Shown one piece after another: positions 5,922-15,659 of a stretch of 64,000 bases of DNA. The DNA comes from a virus (Duplodnaviria > Caudoviricetes). The notes beneath the pieces were generated by a model. That model ran no database searches, was not told the origin of the DNA, and saw only the letters and a program-made list of their open reading frames with translations. The position numbers and the translations under genes are program-made. The stretch covers positions 1 to 64,000 of the IMG/VR virus record IMGVR_UViG_3300037067_013742; one strand, written 5' to 3'. Each line of letters opens with the position of its first letter. Positions within the stretch are counted from its first letter, which is position 1.

Positions 5922-7082
5922 TTAGTTCTGGCGGAGGTAGATAAGCTTGGTACCACGAACAAGCTTTCTGTTTACAGATGTGGACTGCGTAAAAATATCG
6001 TAGTTCATATGGTTGCCGGGCTTAACCCTAGCATCCTGATTATCTGGTAGGCCAAGTAGGCGGCGAGCTTCGTAACCTGTGTAGATAGCCTTCTCGCCCT
6101 TCTTCATGATGGCGATCTGCTTCTGGGGCTGGATTGTCTCTGGCTTGGTCAGCTGGTAGAAGGCATTACCCGTTAGATAGACTTCTCCATGCGACTCAAC
6201 GAAATCCTTGATGACACATTCCTTCTCAACTGACCAAATCTTAGCCTTGCTTCTTACATCAACGAGCTTCTTTAGGTCAGTATCAGTTACCTTCGAGAGA
6301 TCGGTGGTAAGGAATGTCTTTGATGAGGTTTGGCCAAGAGACCTTACTGCATAGTAACCAGCAACCCCAGAGTTTAGTGAGGCAGAGGCCGTGGCCATGC
6401 CCTGTGCCGTTGCTTCCCACTCCTGAACATTGCCTTCGGGGATGCCGAACTGCTTACAGAGGTTGGCCTTAGCTCCCGGCGGAACCATAAAGACGAAGGT
6501 CCAGCGGTCGGTACTGGTTACCTGCTGCATTAGCTTCTCAAGCTTGCCATTGATTTGTGTGAATGAATGTGAGTGATTCTCACATCCATCCGTAATGACC
6601 ATAACTACATACGAAGTCTCTAGGCTATCGGGAATAGAGCGGAGGCGGTTGATGGTCTTGCCAACAGCATCCAGCAGAGGAGTCATCCCATCGGGTCGAT
6701 AGTTAGCAGCGGTTAGCTCCTTCAACGAAGTTACTGGATGAGCAAAGAACTTCTCGACTACTAGACTACGCTCGCCAAAGGTTACAAAAGTAACTGTTGA
6801 CTCCTGCCCCTGCTTCTCCGAATTCTCACGAATTGCCTTCACATTGGAGTTGAAGGCTGCAACTGCATGCTCTCGGATACCCATCATAGAGCCCGAGGCA
6901 TCTAGGCAGATAGCAAAGTGATTGACGAGCTTCTTCTTCTCGCTCTCTACAATTGCCTTGGGTGCTGGCTTGGGCTTCTTCGAAGAAGGCTTCTGCTGAA
7001 CCTTCTTGTTGACCTTAGGGCCAACTACGAAGTGGCCATTAGCATCGCGGGGCTGGGTCTTCCACGAATCGTTTGCTGCCAT
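5922..7082 (-). CDS. von Willebrand factor A (vWA) domain protein
   Basis: MIDAS motif DASGSM, TPLLDA, VITDGCEN; Lys/Pro-rich N-terminus. Confidence 0.85.
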   Translation of the reverse strand: MAANDSWKTQPRDANGHFVVGPKVNKKVQQKPSSKKPKPAPKAIVESEKKKLVNHFAICLDASGSMMGIREHAVAAFNSNVKAIRENSEKQGQESTVTFVTFGERSLVVEKFFAHPVTSLKELTAANYRPDGMTPLLDAVGKTINRLRSIPDSLETSYVVMVITDGCENHSHSFTQINGKLEKLMQQVTSTDRWTFVFMVPPGAKANLCKQFGIPEGNVQEWEATAQGMATASASLNSGVAGYYAVRSLGQTSSKTFLTTDLSKVTDTDLKKLVDVRSKAKIWSVEKECVIKDFVESHGEVYLTGNAFYQLTKPETIQPQKQIAIMKKGEKAIYTGYEARRLLGLPDNQDARVKPGNHMNYDIFTQSTSVNRKLVRGTKLIYLRQN

Positions 7083-7107
7083 TTTTCTTCTCTCTCCTTC
7101 TTAAATC

Positions 7108-7789
7108 CTAGAAGAGCTCATCTAGCTCTCCTCTCAAATACTTCTTTGCGGATATCTTCTTTTGGGTTATGTGATCTATGACTTGATCGTCTCTTATTCT
7201 GATAGTTCGTCGCTTTTCCCCTCGCATTCCACATCCGAGTTGCTCTTTTCTTGTTGAGCTTCTCTCCTTCTGATCGGATTCATCGGCTAACTGTTTTAGT
7301 CTTGAAGCTAATATAGCTTTAGCTGCTTGTAGATTCATACTCTGAGATCTCTCAGATTCATACTTCACTACAATTCCAGTTGGTTTATGAGTCAATCTAA
7401 CTGCTGATGAAGTCTTATTTCTTTTTTGCCCGCCGGCACCAGAACCTCTAAATACTTCTTTAGAGATTTCTCCATCATCAATAATTAAATCTCTAGGATT
7501 TACTGGCTCTAGTATAGCTACTGTAATAGTAGAGGTTTGAACTCTACCTCTCTTCTCAGTAGAAGGGATTCTTTGCCATCTATGCCCACCGGACTCATTA
7601 GCAAAAATCTTCCTAGCATCCTTACCAGAGACTTCTACTATTATGATTGATGGTCGCTGATCCAAAAGAGTTAAGTTAAAGATGTTTCCGAGCGCAGTAC
7701 TTAGTATAGATGCTTAGCTGATCTACGATAAGAAGCTTAGCATCTGACCCACCCTCGGCCGCGTGAATTTCTACTATGATAGTTTCCAT
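7108..7789 (-). CDS. Class I peptide release factor, RF1-like (PxT), lacking domain 1; requires +1 frameshift at 7681-7675
   Basis: ORF0 7789-7676 METIIVEIHAAEGGSDAKLL...KHL* continues in the +1 frame as NLTLLDQRPS...; HRWQRIPSTEKRGRVQTS, GAGGQ, SERSQ; about 226 aa. Confidence 0.85.
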
Positions 7790-8052
7790 CTTTACTCTAC
7801 AAATTCTTTGGTAATTATACCATTTTTATAGTGGATAATATGATTCTACTGGTTTGCCATGGCGGAGGAAAAGTAGGCGGTTGAGGTCTTTCCAGTACTC
7901 TTCAAAGTCTTCAACCTTATCTATCTCTCCATTTTCTACTAGGTCTTCTGCTGTTACTGCGGGCGCATCACATTCACAGCAACTACCTCCATCCCACCAG
8001 CAATCACAGTGAACTCCACTCTCGGATAGATCACACTGACTATCGTCTTTAT

Positions 8053-8460
8053 TCATTTGGTGGTCTCATCAGGTAAGACTGAATCTACGGGATTAAAGTC
8101 GAAGATGTTTCCAGTTCTAGTATGAATTACCTTTTCAAAGTTGTTACCTCTCATATTAGAGAGGAGGATGTTGTACCGTCCATTAACATTTCTTTCTTCG
8201 ACATCTTCTACTGTCATTATTTCGGCGGGAGGAAGAAAGTATATTCCTGAATCAAATTCAGAGTGATGATTTACTTCTACTCTTTCTCCCTTATCAGTAG
8301 TAGCCATCTCGTATTTTTCGTGGCCAAATCTAAAACCATAGTTGTATTTCTTACAGAGCTCTATAATCTTCTTTAGATCTCGCTCTTCTGTTTCAAGTCT
8401 CTGTTCTTCACTGAAGAGTATTCCACCTGATAGGAACTGAACAAATCCTCTACTTGGCAT
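8053..8460 (-). CDS. Hypothetical protein
   Basis: Probable start MPSRGF after SD GGAG; the longer ORF-track start runs into tRNA-Glu. Confidence 0.55.
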   Translation of the reverse strand: MPSRGFVQFLSGGILFSEEQRLETEERDLKKIIELCKKYNYGFRFGHEKYEMATTDKGERVEVNHHSEFDSGIYFLPPAEIMTVEDVEERNVNGRYNILLSNMRGNNFEKVIHTRTGNIFDFNPVDSVLPDETTK

Positions 8461-8474
8461 CTCTTCTCCTCTAG

Positions 8475-8548
8475 CGACCTGGACGGGATTCGAACCCGCA
8501 TTCAATAGCTTGAAGGGCTATGGTCCATACCAATTAGACGGCCAGGCC
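8475..8548 (-). tRNA. tRNA-Glu(TTC), C33
   Basis: Cloverleaf; ATAGC-CCTTCAA-GCTAT; GGTTCGAATCC. Confidence 0.8.
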
Positions 8549-8550
8549 AA

Positions 8551-8624
8551 TGGAGCTGGTAGTAGGAATTGAGCCCACATCTATCGGGTACAGACCGATT
8601 GCTCTACCATTGAGCTATACCAGC
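8551..8624 (-). tRNA. tRNA-Thr(TGT), C33
   Basis: ATCGG-TCTGTAC-CCGAT; CCA encoded. Confidence 0.8.
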
Positions 8625-8626
8625 AA

Positions 8627-8698
8627 AGCTGACGACCGGAGTCGGACCGGTATTTCCTACTTACGGGGCAGGGGTTCTACCAATTAAACTACATCAGC
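8627..8698 (-). tRNA. tRNA-Thr(CGT), C33
   Basis: CCTGC-CCCGTAA-GTAGG. Confidence 0.8.
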
Positions 8699-8732
8699 AA
8701 GACGACAACTAAAGCATCTTTTTCTGGCGGGG

Positions 8733-8803
8733 CGGCCCTAGAGAGAATCGAACTCTCCTTTGTGGTCTGAGAAACCACCGTCCTCCCAGTAGACGACAGG
8801 GCC
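8733..8803 (-). tRNA. tRNA-Glu(CTC)
   Basis: GTGGT-TTCTCAG-ACCAC. Confidence 0.85.
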
Positions 8804-8806
8804 ATA

Positions 8807-8880
8807 TGTAGGTGGCGGGCCTCGAACCCACGACCTCCGACTTGGCAAGCCGGCGCTCTTTCCAACTGAGCCACACCTAC
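8807..8880 (-). tRNA. tRNA-Gly(GCC)
   Basis: CCGGC-TTGCCAA-GTCGG. Confidence 0.85.
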
Positions 8881-8882
8881 GA

Positions 8883-8966
8883 CGGAGGACGGGAGATTCG
8901 AACTCCATACGGTTAAGTACGCATTGATTAGCAGTCAAGCTCAGTGCCCTACTGATTCTATCCTCC
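8883..8966 (-). tRNA. tRNA-Ser(GCT)
   Basis: TTGA-CTGCTAA-TCAA, long variable arm. Confidence 0.8.
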
Positions 8967-8970
8967 AAGG

Positions 8971-9059
8971 CGGTAGATGGAAGGCATGCTCTCCACCCGG
9001 TTCTTCACCGAGCCATCCGATTTCGAGTCGGCGCCAGTTCCTTGACTGGTTCATCTACC
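8971..9059 (-). tRNA. tRNA-Ser(CGA), atypical T-loop
   Basis: CCGA-CTCGAAA-TCGG, long variable arm. Confidence 0.7.
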
Positions 9060-9065
9060 AAAGAG

Positions 9066-9148
9066 CGGAAAAGCGAGGGCACGATCCCCATACCTTGCGG
9101 TACGCAACGCTTTCCAAGCGTGCCTAGATCCCATCTAGTTGCTCTTCC
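9066..9148 (-). tRNA. tRNA-Ser(GGA)
   Basis: ACGC-TTGGAAA-GCGT, long variable arm. Confidence 0.75.
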
Positions 9149-9149
9149 A

Positions 9150-9412
9150 GGCGGTGATGCCGGCTCTCTACTGCGCTTACCGACATCACCCGACGGCTTT
9201 CCCACCGTCATGGGGCATGGATTTCATGCTGTGTCCTTGGCTGGCGCCCATGCTCACTGCTGTTTATCTAGTCTGGACCTGACCATAATAACAGCTGCCG
9301 CTACCAGACCCTCAAAAGGTCATGGCGTAGAGATAGATTCGTCAGAAGGTCCGCACCCCTATCTGACAACCCCGGATAGGAACACTGTGCGGTCACTCGT
9401 CTACCGGATCAC
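9150..9412 (-). ncRNA. Candidate structured ncRNA inside the tRNA array
   Basis: GC-rich gap with no credible ORF; many complementary segments, several interleaved. Confidence 0.5.
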
Positions 9413-9428
9413 AAACTATATAAGAAAT

Positions 9429-9992
9429 TTAATCATGCTCTAGTTCAGTATTCCAATACAGCCACGACTGCCAACATTCTGGGATTGAACTAGAGTCTTC
9501 TACATGGAAGGCAATAAGAGGCAAGCTCTTTGGCTTTACTGGCTGCTTCAAGAGCTTCATCTTTGCTTGCTGCGGAGTCTTGTTCTCTTTGCGGGCGTTA
9601 CAATCGTAGCAAGAAGTTACGATATTCTCCCATACAGTCTTACCACCTTGAGATCTTGGGATTACGTGATCATAGTTCAATTGATTAGTAGGCAACTTTC
9701 GTCCGCAGTACTGGCACTGCCAATTATCTCTGGTAAGGACGTTCATTCTTGAGAAACGAACAGCCTTCCTCCTAGAGATTCTAGAGAGTAGTCTGACTAC
9801 GGCGGGCATCTTCAAGAGCATTGTCCATCCATGAGACTGAGCTCTCTTAGCCTGATCGGGAGTCATTAGAGGCTCGTCATAACACTCGATAACTTCGGCC
9901 TTTTGGTCAAAAATTAGCGATACTGCTCTCTGCCAGCTGATTACTTTGTGCGGCGTGTAACCGATATCCAAGACGAGTGTACGAGCGCTCAT
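9429..9992 (-). CDS. HNH endonuclease (McrA/COG1403-like)
   Basis: RD.WQCQYCG...DHVIPRSQGG..WENIVTSCYDCN; SD GGAGG. Confidence 0.9.
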   Translation of the reverse strand: MSARTLVLDIGYTPHKVISWQRAVSLIFDQKAEVIECYDEPLMTPDQAKRAQSHGWTMLLKMPAVVRLLSRISRRKAVRFSRMNVLTRDNWQCQYCGRKLPTNQLNYDHVIPRSQGGKTVWENIVTSCYDCNARKENKTPQQAKMKLLKQPVKPKSLPLIAFHVEDSSSIPECWQSWLYWNTELEHD

Positions 9993-10024
9993 AACATCCT
10001 CCGTTTCTTTAGTTTACCTCCCAA

Positions 10025-10099
10025 TGGTGCGTCATCAGGGACTTGAACCCTGCACTCTGGAGCTTGAATCCAGCGTCTTTGCCGGTAGACTAATGACGC
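10025..10099 (-). tRNA. tRNA-Leu(CAA), short variable arm
   Basis: CTGGA-TTCAAGC-TCCAG; A73-CCA. Confidence 0.75.
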
Positions 10100-10114
10100 A
10101 GTTAAGATTTCTGA

Positions 10115-10189
10115 TGCTGCTGGTCGGAGTCGAACCGACAACAAATTGATTTTAAATCAATCCTCTCTGCCAAATTGGAGCACAGCAGC
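10115..10189 (-). tRNA. tRNA-Leu(TAA), short variable arm
   Basis: ATTGA-TTTAAAA-TCAAT. Confidence 0.8.
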
Positions 10190-10190
10190 T

Positions 10191-10267
10191 TGGTGGCCAT
10201 GAACAGATTTGAACTGTTAACTTTTACCTTCTCGTGGTAGTGTCTCTGCCAATTGGACTACATGGCC
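10191..10267 (-). tRNA. tRNA-Leu(GAG), short arm, C33
   Basis: TACC-ACGAGAA-GGTA; CCA; overlapped by the HNH 3' end. Confidence 0.7.
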
Positions 10268-10951
10268 ATCTTTATTTAGCTTCCTTATAATATATTTTCT
10301 AATGGCGTTATCTGAAACTCCTAATCTCTTTCCTGTTGCTAGAAAAGAAGTTCTTTGCGTTTCTTCTATTATTTCCTCTACTGAGGGCCAGGAGATCTTT
10401 GGTGGTCTTTGCTTCATTGCACAGGAGCGGCATCGGACAGACCGCTCCGATACCTTTTCCCCGCAATCCTTACAGGTGCCACTCTTCCTATTTCTTCTTA
10501 GCCTATTCTCATTTGTCTTCTGTGTATGACAATTTGGACATAGAATTTCTAGATTATCTAGCTTGCTGTTTCTAAAATTGCCATCTTTGTGATGAATCTG
10601 TAGAGAGAGCGGTTTGCCCTGCCAAGTTTCTCCAGTCCTACAATTTGTGCAGATGAAGGCAATATTTAATTCCCGCAAGGCCCTCTCGAGATATTCTCTC
10701 TTAGGCCTGTCTTCATAGTTATCCGAAAGGATTTCTTCGGGCGTTTTTCTAGAGGGCGAAATAGCCCCCTTACGCCAACGCTGACTTGAAAAGTGGGAGG
10801 TATCTATCTTAAAGTGTCTAATCCTTTTTGCAATATATGACTGAGCTCCAGTGTCTGGCGTTAGCCCTAAGATTCGGGCTACTTCTCTAAAAGACCTTGA
10901 TGTTTCTACGATAGGGGAAAGAATTTCTATACTGTACTTGTGGTAAGTCAT
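10217..10951 (-). mobile_element. Free-standing HNH homing endonuclease
   Basis: LQIHHKDGNFRNSKLDNLEILCPNCH, Zn ribbon, C-terminal HTH. Confidence 0.85.
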
Positions 10952-10993
10952 ACCAATAAGTATAGCACAGGTTGGTTATTGGTTCGAGCTTAG

Positions 10994-11069
10994 TACCACG
11001 AGGGAGATTCGAACTCCCACGAACCAAGTTCTGAGCTTGGGGCCTCATACCAATTTGGACTACCGTGGC
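10994..11069 (-). tRNA. tRNA-Leu(CAG), short variable arm
   Basis: CCAAG-CTCAGAA-CTTGG. Confidence 0.8.
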
Positions 11070-12083
11070 TTACTTCTTCATAACTTTTGTTTCCGGCGGG
11101 ATACCCCATAGGTTTAGGACAAACTTTCTCTCTGGCTTATCTTCTAGCGCCCCGCTAAAAAAAGGATCTTCATAATCTGATTCTAAAGATAGATCCTTCC
11201 ATCCATCATCTATAGCCATACATACTGTATGACTTATCTTATGTATTACTTGAATTGGAGAACCTTCTAAATCATATTCAGAGAACTCACAGAATAATTT
11301 CTTATCAGACATATCGCACGCCCGCTAAAGTAAAGTTTGGGTACTTCTCGTAGAGCTCATAAATACCATGCTCTTTATTCTCTACCTGATTAATTGCTCT
11401 CTCTGGATCGTGGGTAAGAAGCCATCCGTTACCCCAACCCTTAGTCCCCTCTTTATCAGATAGATAAACCTGCATTGCATCTTCTTCTATTCCCTGCTCT
11501 AGATGGCTTAGGTGGAAGGGGGCTAGAAGGACAAAATGGGTTGTTGTGGCTATTCTCGAGGGTAGACTGTAGCTGTATATAACGATCTCTCTGTTGGTCT
11601 TCCAGAGGGTCATATCTCCTACTCGCCTAATGAATTCTGCCATCTTTTCTCCTATTTGTTTGGGCGCGAGAAGAATCGAACTTCTAACTTATCTTCTGAT
11701 AGAGCTTTTACAGTATCTACTAGACCAGCATCTCTTATGGTTTTTCCGGGGAGGATTAATACTTCGTCGGCATTAAATATATTGTAGTCTTCTCTACTTA
11801 GCCCTTCTAAAAAGATTACCGAGCCATCGACATCAAGAGACTCTACGATCATATTTATGCGTTCAGAGTACTGACCTTCTATCCTAACTTTGATCTCTCC
11901 GGGAGTGCTATTTGCCGAGATTATTAAAGCTCCATCAGAAAGGACAGAAGCGCTAGCTCCTTTTCTAATATCAATCTGGATTGAGAAGAGTTCTAGCTCT
12001 CTATCTTCATTGCTATCTTTATGAGAGGAGTAGGCTTTTATAATTTTTGGCGCCAGAGAAAAATCTCTTGTAGCTATTAGCAT
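11070..12083 (-). CDS. Three hypothetical proteins (11070-11312, 11305-11643, 11652-12083) inside the tRNA array
   Basis: Abutting same-strand ORFs. Confidence 0.6.
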
Positions 12084-12134
12084 TATCGATCCTCTAGAGT
12101 TCTATTCATTAAGTAACGAGCGTCAATCTTTTAG

Positions 12135-12371
12135 CGTGGGTGGCGGGATTTGAACCCGCGTTATACTAGAACCTAGGCATTACCCCAGGCCTGGTTAGTT
12201 CTTGGTAAACGCGCTTCCCTACAATGGCGGTTTACGGCCAGGCCCTACTGAATTACTCCAGTAGGCATTGTCCGGTGCATCCGCAACCATATGAACTAAT
12301 CAGCTTAGCCAGTAATAGGCTTTACCCTTACCGTCCGTTTTCGGTATGCCCGTCCTCTGGGCCACACCCAC
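12135..12371 (-). ncRNA. tRNA-like RNA with about 170-nt structured insert in place of the anticodon loop
   Basis: Acceptor GTGGGTG/CACCCAC, D-stem GCCC/GGGC, T-arm GCGGG-TTCAAAT-CCCGC. Confidence 0.75.
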
Positions 12372-12372
12372 A

Positions 12373-12451
12373 TGGCCTCCCCGGGGAGAGTTGAACTCCC
12401 AAATCTCTCGGTTCGTAGCCGAGTGTCCTGAATCCATTAGACGACGGGGAG
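12373..12451 (-). tRNA. tRNA-Arg(ACG)
   Basis: CTCGG-CTACGAA-CCGAG; CCA. Confidence 0.85.
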
Positions 12452-12462
12452 ATTTAAATAGG

Positions 12463-12535
12463 CGCGCCTGGAGGGACTCGAACCCCCAACCAACCGGATA
12501 GAAGCCGGCGACTCTGTCCATTGAGCTACAGGCGC
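12463..12535 (-). tRNA. tRNA-Arg(TCT)
   Basis: GCCGG-CTTCTAT-CCGGT. Confidence 0.85.
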
Positions 12536-12540
12536 AAGAA

Positions 12541-12613
12541 AGACCCAGGGGGGAGTTGAACCCAACCTTTTCCGCTTTTGCAGAGCGGCGCCTGACCGAT
12601 TGGCTTCTGGGTC
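12541..12613 (-). tRNA. tRNA-Cys(GCA)
   Basis: CCGCT-CTGCAAA-AGCGG; U73. Confidence 0.85.
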
Positions 12614-12616
12614 TTA

Positions 12617-12687
12617 TGCAGGTAGTCGGAGTTGGACCGACGCCACCGATTTGGAAGACCGGGATGCTACCGTAACACCTTACCTGC
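12617..12687 (-). tRNA. tRNA-Gly(TCC)
   Basis: CCGGT-CTTCCAA-ATCGG. Confidence 0.8.
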
Positions 12688-12691
12688 TTAG

Positions 12692-12764
12692 AGCTGCAAG
12701 CCGGATTTGGACCAGCCGTCTCTTGCGTACCGAGCAAGTGCTTTACCAACTAAGCTATTGCAGC
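12692..12764 (-). tRNA. tRNA-Thr(GGT), C33
   Basis: CTTGC-TCGGTAC-GCAAG. Confidence 0.8.
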
Positions 12765-12773
12765 TTAAAGAAA

Positions 12774-13016
12774 CTATCTACTACATTCTAGTAAGAGTGT
12801 CTTAGATTCATATCCTTCACAAACTCTTTCACTTTCATCTTCACATATAGCCATCCAACGATAACGATCTTCATATTGATTAGAGATCTTTTCACTACCA
12901 GTAATCTTAGTAGGACTGCATTCTGGAGAAGCTATATTAGTTGATCTTGTCATCCAAGATGTTTGTGCCGCGCAAGAGAGAAGAAGTAGAGCTATAACAA
13001 TTAGTAAGAATTTCAT
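12774..13016 (-). CDS. Small lipoprotein
   Basis: MKFLLIVIALLLLSC lipobox; SD GGAGG. Confidence 0.7.
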   Translation of the reverse strand: MKFLLIVIALLLLSCAAQTSWMTRSTNIASPECSPTKITGSEKISNQYEDRYRWMAICEDESERVCEGYESKTLLLECSR

Positions 13017-13031
13017 TTAACCTCCGATGTT

Positions 13032-13105
13032 TGGTGGACCCAGAGAGAATCGAACTCTCATCCCCAGCTTGCAGGGCTAGTGTCTTCCCGTTGGACGATG
13101 GGCCC
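13032..13105 (-). tRNA. tRNA-Ala(TGC), C33
   Basis: CTAGC-CCTGCAA-GCTGG; G3:U70; CCA. Confidence 0.85.
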
Positions 13106-13196
13106 ATTATCCCTAGCTTCTCCTCCCACGGCTAGGGGCGTGGATGGTGCCGACCCACAATCTGGTTATGCTCAGATGGTAAGAGTCGTCGAGGGA

Positions 13197-13267
13197 TGGG
13201 CTCAGAGGGAATTGAACCCCCGATTCCTGCGAGTCGAGCAAGTGTGATACCTCTTCACCATGAGCCC
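13197..13267 (-). tRNA. tRNA-Val(GAC), C33/U37
   Basis: CTTGC-TCGACTC-GCAGG. Confidence 0.7.
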
Positions 13268-13327
13268 TAAGGTCCCCAATGCTGGCCAGCTTCCCGGCAG
13301 ACAACACTGACTCGGGATTGGGGACGG

Positions 13328-13400
13328 TGCATCGGGCCGGGGTTGAACCGGCGACCTCTCGTGTATCAGACGAGTGCGATACCAGTTTCGCTACCGATGC
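13328..13400 (-). tRNA. tRNA-Ile(GAT)
   Basis: CTCGT-CTGATAC-ACGAG. Confidence 0.85.
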
Positions 13401-13605
13401 GATTAAACGGATGATCTATCTATATGTCGTATAACTCTCTCTCTTTCGAGCGGGGACATTGCCAGATAATCCTCATCTGGGATACCTGCTCCAAAGCAAC
13501 GAATCCATCTTTGTTGATAAGTAGACCAATAACTTATTGTTCCATCTCTATGATAAGTAGACTTATACTCTTTCTTAATCTTTGGCGGCATTCTCTCTCC
13601 ACTAG

Positions 13606-13677
13606 CGGTCCTACTCAGAATTGAACTGAAATTTCAGGTGTAGGAAACCTGCGTCTTATCCTTTAGACGATAGGACC
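13606..13677 (-). tRNA. tRNA-Arg(CCT)
   Basis: CAGGT-TTCCTAC-ACCTG. Confidence 0.8.
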
Positions 13678-13685
13678 TTTGTTTG

Positions 13686-14201
13686 TTAGAAAGTCTTGCA
13701 ATAAGTAACTGGGATACTTGCCACGTTTACAGATGTGAGACTCTCAAAGTATCCAGTCCAAGCTCCGTTGTAATACTCAATAGATTCTCCAGAAGGGAGA
13801 GTTACTTGGTATCTTGTTATGGAGCCATCAGACTTTCTTATATGTTCGGCCAAAACCTCTGCATCTACGACGTCTTTTAGAAGACCAACAAACTCTATTC
13901 GTCCCTCTTCATGATGAAATGAATCACCAGTGCTGTAGATCACATAAACTAGGAAGAAATACTCTCCAACCTTTGGCTCTGAGTCCAAGTAGAAATCGCC
14001 ATACTCTGATCCCGATAACTGAACCGCCTGTACGTTAGGTTGATATGCTAGGTCGTCTGCGTCCCACTCATCATCGCTTCTTGCGTGTCGAGTAACCCTA
14101 CTACCTAGCGTATGTAGAATGTTAACAGCGTAGGATTTCGGCTTCTCCTCTTTTATATAAACCTTCTTAATCTTAACGGGCTTCTTCTTTGGTTTTGCCA
14201 T
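13686..14201 (-). CDS. Conserved phage hypothetical protein
   Basis: YSTGDSF and W.GYFESL motifs. Confidence 0.65.
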   Translation of the reverse strand: MAKPKKKPVKIKKVYIKEEKPKSYAVNILHTLGSRVTRHARSDDEWDADDLAYQPNVQAVQLSGSEYGDFYLDSEPKVGEYFFLVYVIYSTGDSFHHEEGRIEFVGLLKDVVDAEVLAEHIRKSDGSITRYQVTLPSGESIEYYNGAWTGYFESLTSVNVASIPVTYCKTF

Positions 14202-14237
14202 GGTCTCTTCTTCTTCCTATTTTTGCCGGCGAAATAG

Positions 14238-14310
14238 TCCCGAGACGCCGAGTCGAACGGCGATTGCCAGATCCACAGTCTGGAGTACTATCCAGTTGTA
14301 CGATCTCGGG
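14238..14310 (-). tRNA. tRNA-His(GTG), no encoded G-1, A73
   Basis: CCAGA-CTGTGGA-TCTGG. Confidence 0.8.
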
Positions 14311-14381
14311 AAAAGAGTCTAGGCTTCAGTAGAACTAATTATCTATTTACTTCTGTAAAACAAATTAGTACCTAGACTCAG

Positions 14382-14464
14382 TCCCCCAGGAAGGAATCGA
14401 ACCTCCATGGCCTAAAGGCTTTCGGGTTACAGCCGAAGTTGACTCCATAGCAACCTACTGGGGG
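14382..14464 (-). tRNA. tRNA-Tyr(GTA)
   Basis: TTCGG-CTGTAAC-CCGAA, long variable arm. Confidence 0.8.
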
Positions 14465-14469
14465 ATAAA

Positions 14470-14547
14470 TGGTCGGGGTGGCCGGGGTCGAACCGGCACA
14501 AACTCCTGCGCCCAAAGCAGGCGGCTTACCATCAAGCCCTCACCCCG
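14470..14547 (-). tRNA. tRNA-Pro(TGG)
   Basis: CCTGC-TTTGGGC-GCAGG; CCA. Confidence 0.85.
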
Positions 14548-14551
14548 ATAT

Positions 14552-14625
14552 TGGTGGCCGGGGGCAGAATCGGACTGCCACATTCAGATTTTCAATCTGA
14601 AGCCCTACCATTAGACGACCCGGCC
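14552..14625 (-). tRNA. tRNA-Phe(GAA)
   Basis: TCAGA-TTGAAAA-TCTGA; CCA. Confidence 0.85.
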
Positions 14626-14664
14626 AAATGTGTGCGATCTAACTCTGGATACATTTTTGAACAA

Positions 14665-14736
14665 CAGGAGGTGGGTGAATTGAACACCCCAGGCAGGCCA
14701 TTTTGGAGACGGCCCCGCGTACCCAGCGCACCTCCT
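14665..14736 (-). tRNA. tRNA-Trp(CCA)
   Basis: GCCGT-CTCCAAA-ATGGC. Confidence 0.8.
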
Positions 14737-14745
14737 AGACAGGTT

Positions 14746-14818
14746 TACCGGAGGTAGGGCTTGAACCTACAACAAACAACGTCAGAGGCTGTTGCTCTGC
14801 CAATTGAGCTACTCCGGT
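14746..14818 (-). tRNA. tRNA-Gln(CTG)
   Basis: ACAGC-CTCTGAC-GTTGT. Confidence 0.8.
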
Positions 14819-14819
14819 A

Positions 14820-14893
14820 TGGCAGGGATGGAAAGATTTGAACTTTCGATGATAGGGTCAAAGCCTATTGCCTTACCGCTTGGCTACATCCCT
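14820..14893 (-). tRNA. tRNA-Gln(TTG)
   Basis: ATAGG-CTTTGAC-CCTAT; CCA. Confidence 0.85.
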
Positions 14894-14899
14894 ATAGAG

Positions 14900-14972
14900 T
14901 GGGTCCAGGGCGAGTCGAACGCCCATGATTCGGTTAAGAGCCGAAGCCGTTACCAATTACGGTCATGGACCC
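14900..14972 (-). tRNA. tRNA-Lys(CTT)
   Basis: TTCGG-CTCTTAA-CCGAA. Confidence 0.85.
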
Positions 14973-14974
14973 AA

Positions 14975-15054
14975 TGGCGACCGAGGTGGGGGTCGAACCC
15001 ACATAAAAATCCCTGATTAACAGTCAGGTGCGCCTGCCTTTGCGCTACTCGGTC
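14975..15054 (-). tRNA. tRNA-Asn(GTT)
   Basis: CCTGA-CTGTTAA-TCAGG; CCA. Confidence 0.85.
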
Positions 15055-15404
15055 AATATAACTATTCCAGCTTCTACTTCAGCATGGCATCTAACGCATA
15101 GAAGAATACATTTAGCAGCTTCTTTCCTAAGGGCATCGATACTTCTTGTTGTCTTGCTTGAGCTAAGACCGAACTCTTTTTGGGCTGGGTCTTTGTGATG
15201 GAAATTTAAGGCCCCTATATACTTGTTATATCCGCATATAGAGCATTTTCCCCCAGCCTCTTTTACTAGAATCTCCTTCATCTTTCTTCTACGTCGAGTT
15301 ACTGCTTCGGAAGCACATGTCCGACATCGCCATCCACAGTGTTTACCATGTTGGATTCGTGGTGCGAACTCCGTGTACCCGTGCTCCTTACATTCTCTTA
15401 TCAT
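15045..15404 (-). mobile_element. Small HNH homing endonuclease
   Basis: CSICGY...ALNFHHKDP...KCILLCVRCH; likely leaderless start at 15404. Confidence 0.8.
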
Positions 15405-15447
15405 CAACCAATTATACACTGGTTAACGATAAGTGTTAGTCCTTTAG

Positions 15448-15520
15448 TGGGTCTGCCAGGGTTACGGTCCTGGACCTCGGGAAGAAACTTCCCGCATACT
15501 ATCGTATATACGACAGACCC
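15448..15520 (-). ncRNA. Non-canonical tRNA-Lys(TTT)-like RNA
   Basis: Four stems intact; anticodon arm CGGGAAG-TTT-CTTCCCG; T-loop ACCGTAAC; no D-loop GG. Confidence 0.6.
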
Positions 15521-15545
15521 AAGATGCTTTAGTTGTCAGAGAACC
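15521..15545 (-). promoter_or_regulatory. rrn boxA-like/processing-stem element
   Basis: GGTTCTCTGACAACTAAAGCATCTT; 17 nt are the exact complement of 8704-8720. Confidence 0.45.
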
Positions 15546-15585
15546 GAACAGCCGTCGCTGGGAAGCTCCAGTTTAAGCTTCCTTC

Positions 15586-15659
15586 TGGTGGGTCATAAGC
15601 GAATCGAACGCTTATCCCGAGGTTAAAAGCCTCTTGCACTGCCGTTGTGCTAATGACCC
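15586..15659 (-). tRNA. tRNA-Lys(TTT)
   Basis: AGAGG-CTTTTAA-CCTCG; CCA. Confidence 0.85.

Follow-up and report, generated by a model that had tools for sequence, protein, structure and literature searches.

A phage gene for an RF1-type release factor without domain 1, probably read through a prfB-style +1 frameshift

In this study, a minus-strand gene at 7789-7108 of a phage DNA stretch of 64,000 nucleotides (the window; positions 1 to 64,000 of the IMG/VR record IMGVR_UViG_3300037067_013742) was analyzed, and its two reading frames were found to read together as one protein. With a probability of about 0.8, judged from sequence comparison, the gene encodes a single class-I release factor (RF) of 226 residues, of RF1 type but without domain 1, which would be produced by a programmed +1 frameshift of the kind known from prfB. 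The split of the gene is not due to chance: the joined product is co-linear with RF1 without a gap, and the CTT-stop junction between its two parts is conserved. The frameshift of bacterial prfB is the textbook example of a gene product that senses its own activity via recoding.

Beginning at the ATG, 37 sense codons close with CGG AAA CAT CTT and are followed by TAA C. The +1 frame is entered at AAC (7677-7675) and remains open for 189 codons until a TAG at 7110-7108; when the T at 7678 is omitted, the sequence continues as AAC TTA ACT, and the joined translation comprises 226 residues (P0001). At the junction of this product ARKHL is followed directly by NLTLLDQRPS, and its predicted junction peptide is HLNLTLLDQRPSIIIVEVSGK. 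An earlier sequence-only reading had described a 37-codon ORF from ATG 7789 that ends in CAT-CTT-TAA-C, with a +1 frame running straight into the ORF that carries the GGQ motif. It proved correct in every coordinate and peptide that it quoted, and the second frame runs on as it had claimed. ORF1 supplies the opening beta-strand of RF domain 2 together with helix alpha-5, and with them Gly13 and Asp16; the +1 part supplies Gln72, Pro-Ser-Thr 75-77 and Thr85 of domain 2, GGQ 119-121 of domain 3, and domain 4. The C that follows the stop in the prfB cassette, where it makes termination poor, is also present in the window (Table 1). Gene callers give only the 185-residue downstream ORF for this gene, and a TTG (7665) is found four codons into the +1 frame. 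A megablast search with positions 6000-9000 against GenBank phages returned no match.

Table 1. Positions of the release-factor gene, its shift site and the neighboring tRNA genes in the window.
Feature	Position	Strand	Details
tRNA gene array upstream, co-oriented	8475..15659	minus	27/28 of the ARAGORN calls in the window, plus one found by Rfam only
ORF1 (ATG + 36 codons; residues 1-37 of the full product)	7679..7789	minus	ATG 7789-7787; Gly13/Asp16 encoded at 7753-7742
SD-like box GGAAA, degenerate	7685..7689	minus	followed by the 3-nt spacer CAT 7684-7682
Shift heptamer CTT TAA C	7675..7681	minus	CTT 7681-7679, TAA 7678-7676, C 7675
+1-frame continuation (residues 38-226 + TAG)	7108..7677	minus	rest of domain 2, domains 3 and 4; PST encoded at 7566-7558, GGQ at 7434-7426

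Profile searches place the product with RF1. The Pfam matches consist of the C-terminal half of PCRF only (model positions 101-194 of 194) and the RF-1 domain with its GGQ motif, and the late start on the PCRF model confirms the earlier claim that domain 1 is absent. Two prfA models (TIGR00019 / NF001859) ranked first in NCBIfam, with 204-205 bits over model positions 105-343; these scores fall below the curated prfA cut-offs of 400 and 423 bits because domain 1 is missing. The prfB model reached 132 bits. Among solved structures, the closest were the RF1 of T. maritima (residues 88-316, E 1.7e-46) and that of T. thermophilus. The joined product aligns with domains 2-4 of solved RF1 gaplessly across the junction, and it shares 51 % identity with an uninterrupted 227-aa homologue (P0014) over 226/226 residues, again without gaps.

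The residues at the decoding and catalytic positions are kept as well. Gly13 and Asp16 of the product align with Gly116 and Glu119 of T. thermophilus RF1, while Gln72, Thr77, Thr85 and GGQ 119-121 align with Gln181, Thr186, Thr194 and GGQ 228-230; the columns of Pro-Ser-Thr 75-77, GGQ 119-121, Gln72 and Thr85 are invariant or nearly so in alignment A1. From structures of RF1 termination complexes, we take recognition of U1, A2 and the third purine to be the task of Gly116, Glu119, Gln181, Thr186 and Thr194. Since Gly13 and Asp16 sit in ORF1, the downstream ORF alone would miss part of the decoding site. With prfA models ranked first and the RF1 residues kept, the earlier assignment to an RF1-type factor with a PST loop and a GGQ motif holds. 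The in-frame homologue P0014 was used as a stand-in for the window product in an AlphaFold model (pLDDT 87.9), in which strand 3-12 and helix 14-34 fall in the part equivalent to ORF1. This model of P0014 fits ribosome-bound RF1 with a TM of 0.93 and an rmsd of 1.7 A, versus a TM of 0.63 to PrfH. Domain 1 of RF1 is the contact on the RF3/L11 side, and truncated E. coli RFs without it retain codon-dependent release in vitro and lose the interaction with RF3.

Homologous loci were gathered from GenBank phages, IMG/VR, metagenomes and assemblies, which yielded 162 distinct genes. A +1 shift between the N- and C-terminal parts is required in 101 of these, and the other 61 are in frame. All 101 shift-type homologues end frame 0 with CTT and then a stop, always in the same alignment column; the stop is TGA in 65, TAG in 30 and TAA in 6, and a C comes after it in 83 (76/93 in an earlier set). 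At the shift column the in-frame relatives encode Phe, Trp, Leu or Ile (TTT, TTC, TGG, TGA, CTA, CTC and others), and CTT occurs there in only 2 of the 61. The most variable codon position among relatives is the third of frame 0 before the site and the third of the +1 frame after it. A prfB-style +1 frameshift site, as claimed from the sequence, is therefore borne out by a CTT-stop junction common to about 100 relatives. For the proposed conservation of CTT-TAA-C across homologues the outcome was divided: the CTT-stop part stood throughout the shift type, while TAA itself did not.

Full-length prfA genes from species-representative cellular genomes, about 66 in number, were all in frame. In species-representative genomes, 11 short RF genes with CTT TGA or CTT TAG were also found, mostly in Myxococcota. 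Genome records of Myxococcota and Bradymonadia hold short shift-type RF genes with GGAGG upstream (L176-L186, L214); one of them, L183, is on the chromosome of Archangium gephyra (NZ_CP102578.1, 3541504-3545182).

Other relatives differ from the window gene in their own ways. Four loci (L006, L007, L037, L086) are in frame yet have a stop exactly at the shift codon (CTA TGA, TAT TAG, CTC TGA); translation past these in-frame stops (region ~1600-1615 per locus) would depend on readthrough or on recoding of the genetic code. In 22 in-frame loci (e.g. L035, L061, L096, L140 and L153) GGY TGA stands where RF1 has Gly-Trp. TGA apparently means Trp in these contigs, so that short RF1-type genes also occur, free of frameshifts, in phages or hosts with a code of type 4. 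The recognition loop is shortened or altered in the shift-type loci L001/L005, L060 and L074, in which PxT is gone (...QRTSNGRIHSS, ...WQEKSGGRMQTS). Ser-Pro-Thr replaces PxT in four shift-type relatives. The stop specificity of relatives with an altered loop may differ.

The nine closest genes, that of the window among them, form a well-supported group (support 99 in FastTree, whose support values are local only). In this clade CTT is followed by TAA (the window, L167, L168 and L171) or by TAG (the five others), and TGA is used by none of the nine. The contig of L175 is identical to the window over the gene region and has the same shift site. L167 is a distinct relative with 86 % protein identity and the same CTT TAA C, and all of its differences in ORF1 (5/5) are synonymous in frame 0; relatives at 62-86 % identity share the same TAA. 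The SD-like box is intact in some members of the clade (CGGAGG...) and decayed in the window and L167 (GGAAA), as well as in L168. A LAGLIDADG homing-endonuclease gene lies between the RF gene and a VWA-like gene in L167 (1280-2062), an insert that is absent in the window.

In the family as a whole, GGAGG at -8 to -4, three bases before CTT, is perfect in 59/101 shift-type homologues and has at least 4 of 5 matches in 73/101, giving a consensus of GGAGG-N3-CTT-stop-C. The box of the window matches GGAGG at only 3 of 5 positions and falls short of the SD element of the prfB cassette; the internal SD sequence that the earlier reading had named for prfB has no good counterpart in the window. The RNA fold around the shift site was no more stable than that of shuffled sequence (z 0.46), which gives no grounds to propose a structural stimulator. 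tRNAs were the only hits of an Rfam scan of 6900-8600, and a promoter scan found nothing upstream of the gene.

Several alternatives to a frameshifted RF1-type factor were weighed. That the split is an assembly error of one base, or that the gene was recently inactivated by mutation and is now a pseudogene, is scarcely credible: one extra T in the TTT run would look identical, but the same junction occurs in 101 distinct genes from many samples, including the relatives at 62-86 % identity with TAA, and both halves are under frame-specific constraint. It is also very improbable that the gene makes two separate polypeptides, whether as a split gene or by termination and reinitiation, with pieces of 37 and 185 residues that assemble or act alone. 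The TTG in the +1 frame and the 185-residue ORF of the gene callers would suit such an arrangement; against it, CTT is invariant although leucine has six codons, and ORF1 encodes part of the domain that the +1 frame continues, namely its first strand and helix alpha-5. Reinitiation was rejected since a restart codon is not conserved: 67 of the 101 shift-type genes lack any ATG, GTG or TTG in the first 12 codons of the +1 frame, and 44 lack them throughout the first 20. More consideration is due to the notion that the product serves in ribosome rescue, as PrfH or ArfB do, or sits on host ribosomes as a decoy, but this is still unlikely. Like PrfH, the product has no domain 1 and a length in the range of about 200-230 residues, and weak matches to the PrfH and ArfB models exist. 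These matches stay well under their cut-offs, however (PrfH TIGR03072, 90.5 versus 166.65 bits; ArfB NF006718, 42.4 versus 100 bits), while the prfA models cover domains 2-4 with far higher scores. The ArfB match is confined to the GGQ region, and the product has domain 2. The complete set of RF1 stop-reading residues, a modeled fold close to RF1 rather than PrfH, and the failure to find RtcB (PF01139) anywhere in the 229-kb genome also speak against rescue, an option that the sequence-only reading had kept and that is left unsupported.

Another alternative accepts the frameshift as real and dispenses with self-feedback: the site would sense the termination capacity of the host or set a fixed low yield, and any slow stop in a C context would work. 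We regard this as quite possible, though short of an even chance. The stop at the shift site is labile, with at least about 24 changes of type along the tree; closely paired genes that retain the same Pro-Pro-Thr loop have different stops, and members with TGA share their loop with members that have TAG. No link was found between the type of stop and either the tripeptide loop or the stop usage of flanking genes. The prfB motif, in contrast, has TGA in 98.6 % of 8,164 genomes and never TAG (PMC12421855), and TAA is rare. Two points argue the other way: the nine-member clade of the window uses only TAA and TAG even though TGA is the majority stop of the family, and the window product would be expected to compete at the UAA of its own gene. 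The earlier claim that an RF1-type factor can read this UAA holds in principle, as the RF1 stop-reading residues are kept. Self-limiting feedback is therefore plausible at the window gene, on sequence grounds, because its clade uses only stops that an RF1-type factor can read. For the whole family such feedback is doubtful because TGA dominates, the stop is labile, and it does not track the stops of the flanking genes; RF1-type decoding residues are not expected to read the TGA of those 65 members. The earlier proposal that the factor is made only when termination capacity is low would suit the clade of the window and does not extend to the family as a rule.

If the gene does encode a domain-1-less RF1-type factor made by +1 frameshifting, ribosomes would come to a pause at the end of the 37 codons, the P site then being filled by CUU and the A site by UAA-C. 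In part of these ribosomes, by analogy with prfB, tRNA-Leu would slip from CUU to UUU and translation would resume at AAC; the remaining ribosomes would terminate and free a 37-residue peptide. As the full product retains GGQ and every stop-reading residue of RF1, it would most likely release peptides at UAA and UAG, and it would do so without domain 1. It would add RF1-type capacity to a phage in which TAG and TAA close most of the genes. Since host RF1, host RF2 and the product can all read the UAA at the shift site, output should fall as termination capacity rises. UAA is the rarest shift-site stop in the family and is readable by both host factors; its rarity (6 %) suggests that shifting is too scarce at a stop which both can read. 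With this UAA and a degenerate SD box, the shift in the window gene is probably inefficient and the factor made in small amounts.

The phage, a virus record of 229,064 bp, has 89 % coding density in the standard code and no suppressor tRNA in its genome, and the window gene is its only gene with an RF-1 domain. Crude ORF calls for the genome (n=257) end in TAG in 108 cases (42 %), in TAA in 86 (33 %) and in TGA in 63 (25 %); in the window, 49 of 98 such calls end in TAG, in agreement with the earlier remark that many genes here do so. This is an unusually high share of TAG. The TAG and TAA shares in the genome fit a need for extra RF1-type capacity. The tRNA array just upstream of the gene, with 28 to 29 tRNA genes, includes a tRNA-Leu(GAG) gene (10191-10267, minus strand), the isoacceptor type for CUU, and four more tRNA-Leu species are encoded. 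tRNA-Leu(GAG) would be a candidate for the tRNA that slips. A further tRNA gene (8475-8548, minus strand; Rfam 48.8 bits) was missed by ARAGORN and overlaps the 5' end of the ORF at 8053-8505; its anticodon loop, CCUUCAA, corresponds to the anticodon UUC (Glu), with C replacing U at position 33.

Compared with prfB of bacteria, which encodes RF2, the window gene and its family share the CUU-stop-C heptamer, a presumed +1 slip of the P-site tRNA-Leu, and a class-I RF as the product. The SD sequence with its 3-nt spacer is also shared by most family members (GGAGG), the box of the window gene being degenerate. Unlike prfB, the factor is of RF1 type without domain 1, and the stop may be TGA, TAG or TAA, with UAA in the window. 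The shift site is in domain 2, at residue 140 of T. thermophilus RF1, whereas that of prfB is near codon 26 in domain 1; the site in the phage family is thus not homologous to that of prfB. With bacterial RF1 (prfA) the product has in common domains 2-4, the PxT loop (Pro-Ser-Thr), GGQ and the equivalents of the decoding residues, but about 105 N-terminal residues (domain 1) are absent, domain 2 has a six-residue deletion, and a frameshift is needed. PrfH (RF-H), the paralogue paired with RtcB2, is likewise a short class-I RF homologue without domain 1; the window product differs from it in keeping the RF1 stop-reading residues, in having no RtcB partner in the genome, in its TIGR03072 score below cut-off, and in the low TM to PrfH noted above.

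Class-I RFs carried by phages among their translation genes have been reported before (PMC7162821; bioRxiv 10.1101/2021.08.26.457843), and neither frameshifting nor the loss of domain 1 is mentioned in these reports. RF1 and RF2 appear in the huge-phage paper as translation genes of phages, with no mention of frameshifting (PMC7162821), and the preprint on stop recoding describes RF1 in TGA-recoded phages, with no frameshift (bioRxiv 10.1101/2021.08.26.457843). Unlike such stop-recoded phages, the phage studied here combines the absence of a suppressor tRNA with high coding density in the standard code. In a survey from 2025 that covered over 12,000 genomes, the frameshift device was judged specific to RF2, with no convincing case in prfA (PMC12421855). 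Our literature search found no published description of an RF1-type family with such a shift.

In sum, more than 100 RF1-type genes of phages and mobile elements carry a prfB-like device at a codon that is not homologous to that of prfB, with all three stops in use. One tentative view, which we consider possible but doubtful, is that in this domain-1-less RF1-type family of huge phages and myxobacterial elements the prfB switch evolved independently at a new position, where the gating stop is free to drift between UGA, UAG and UAA and couples supply of the factor to whichever host RF (RF2, RF1 or both) runs short; the window clade would then be a true RF1-type feedback loop for a TAG-rich genome. 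The family provides a natural series for separating the mechanical from the regulatory features of the cassette, and it reveals that gene callers systematically shorten these genes to the downstream ORF. A natural RF1 without domain 1 may also interest engineers of termination and stop-codon reassignment. The finding also points to phages that tune termination capacity, beyond the supply of tRNAs.
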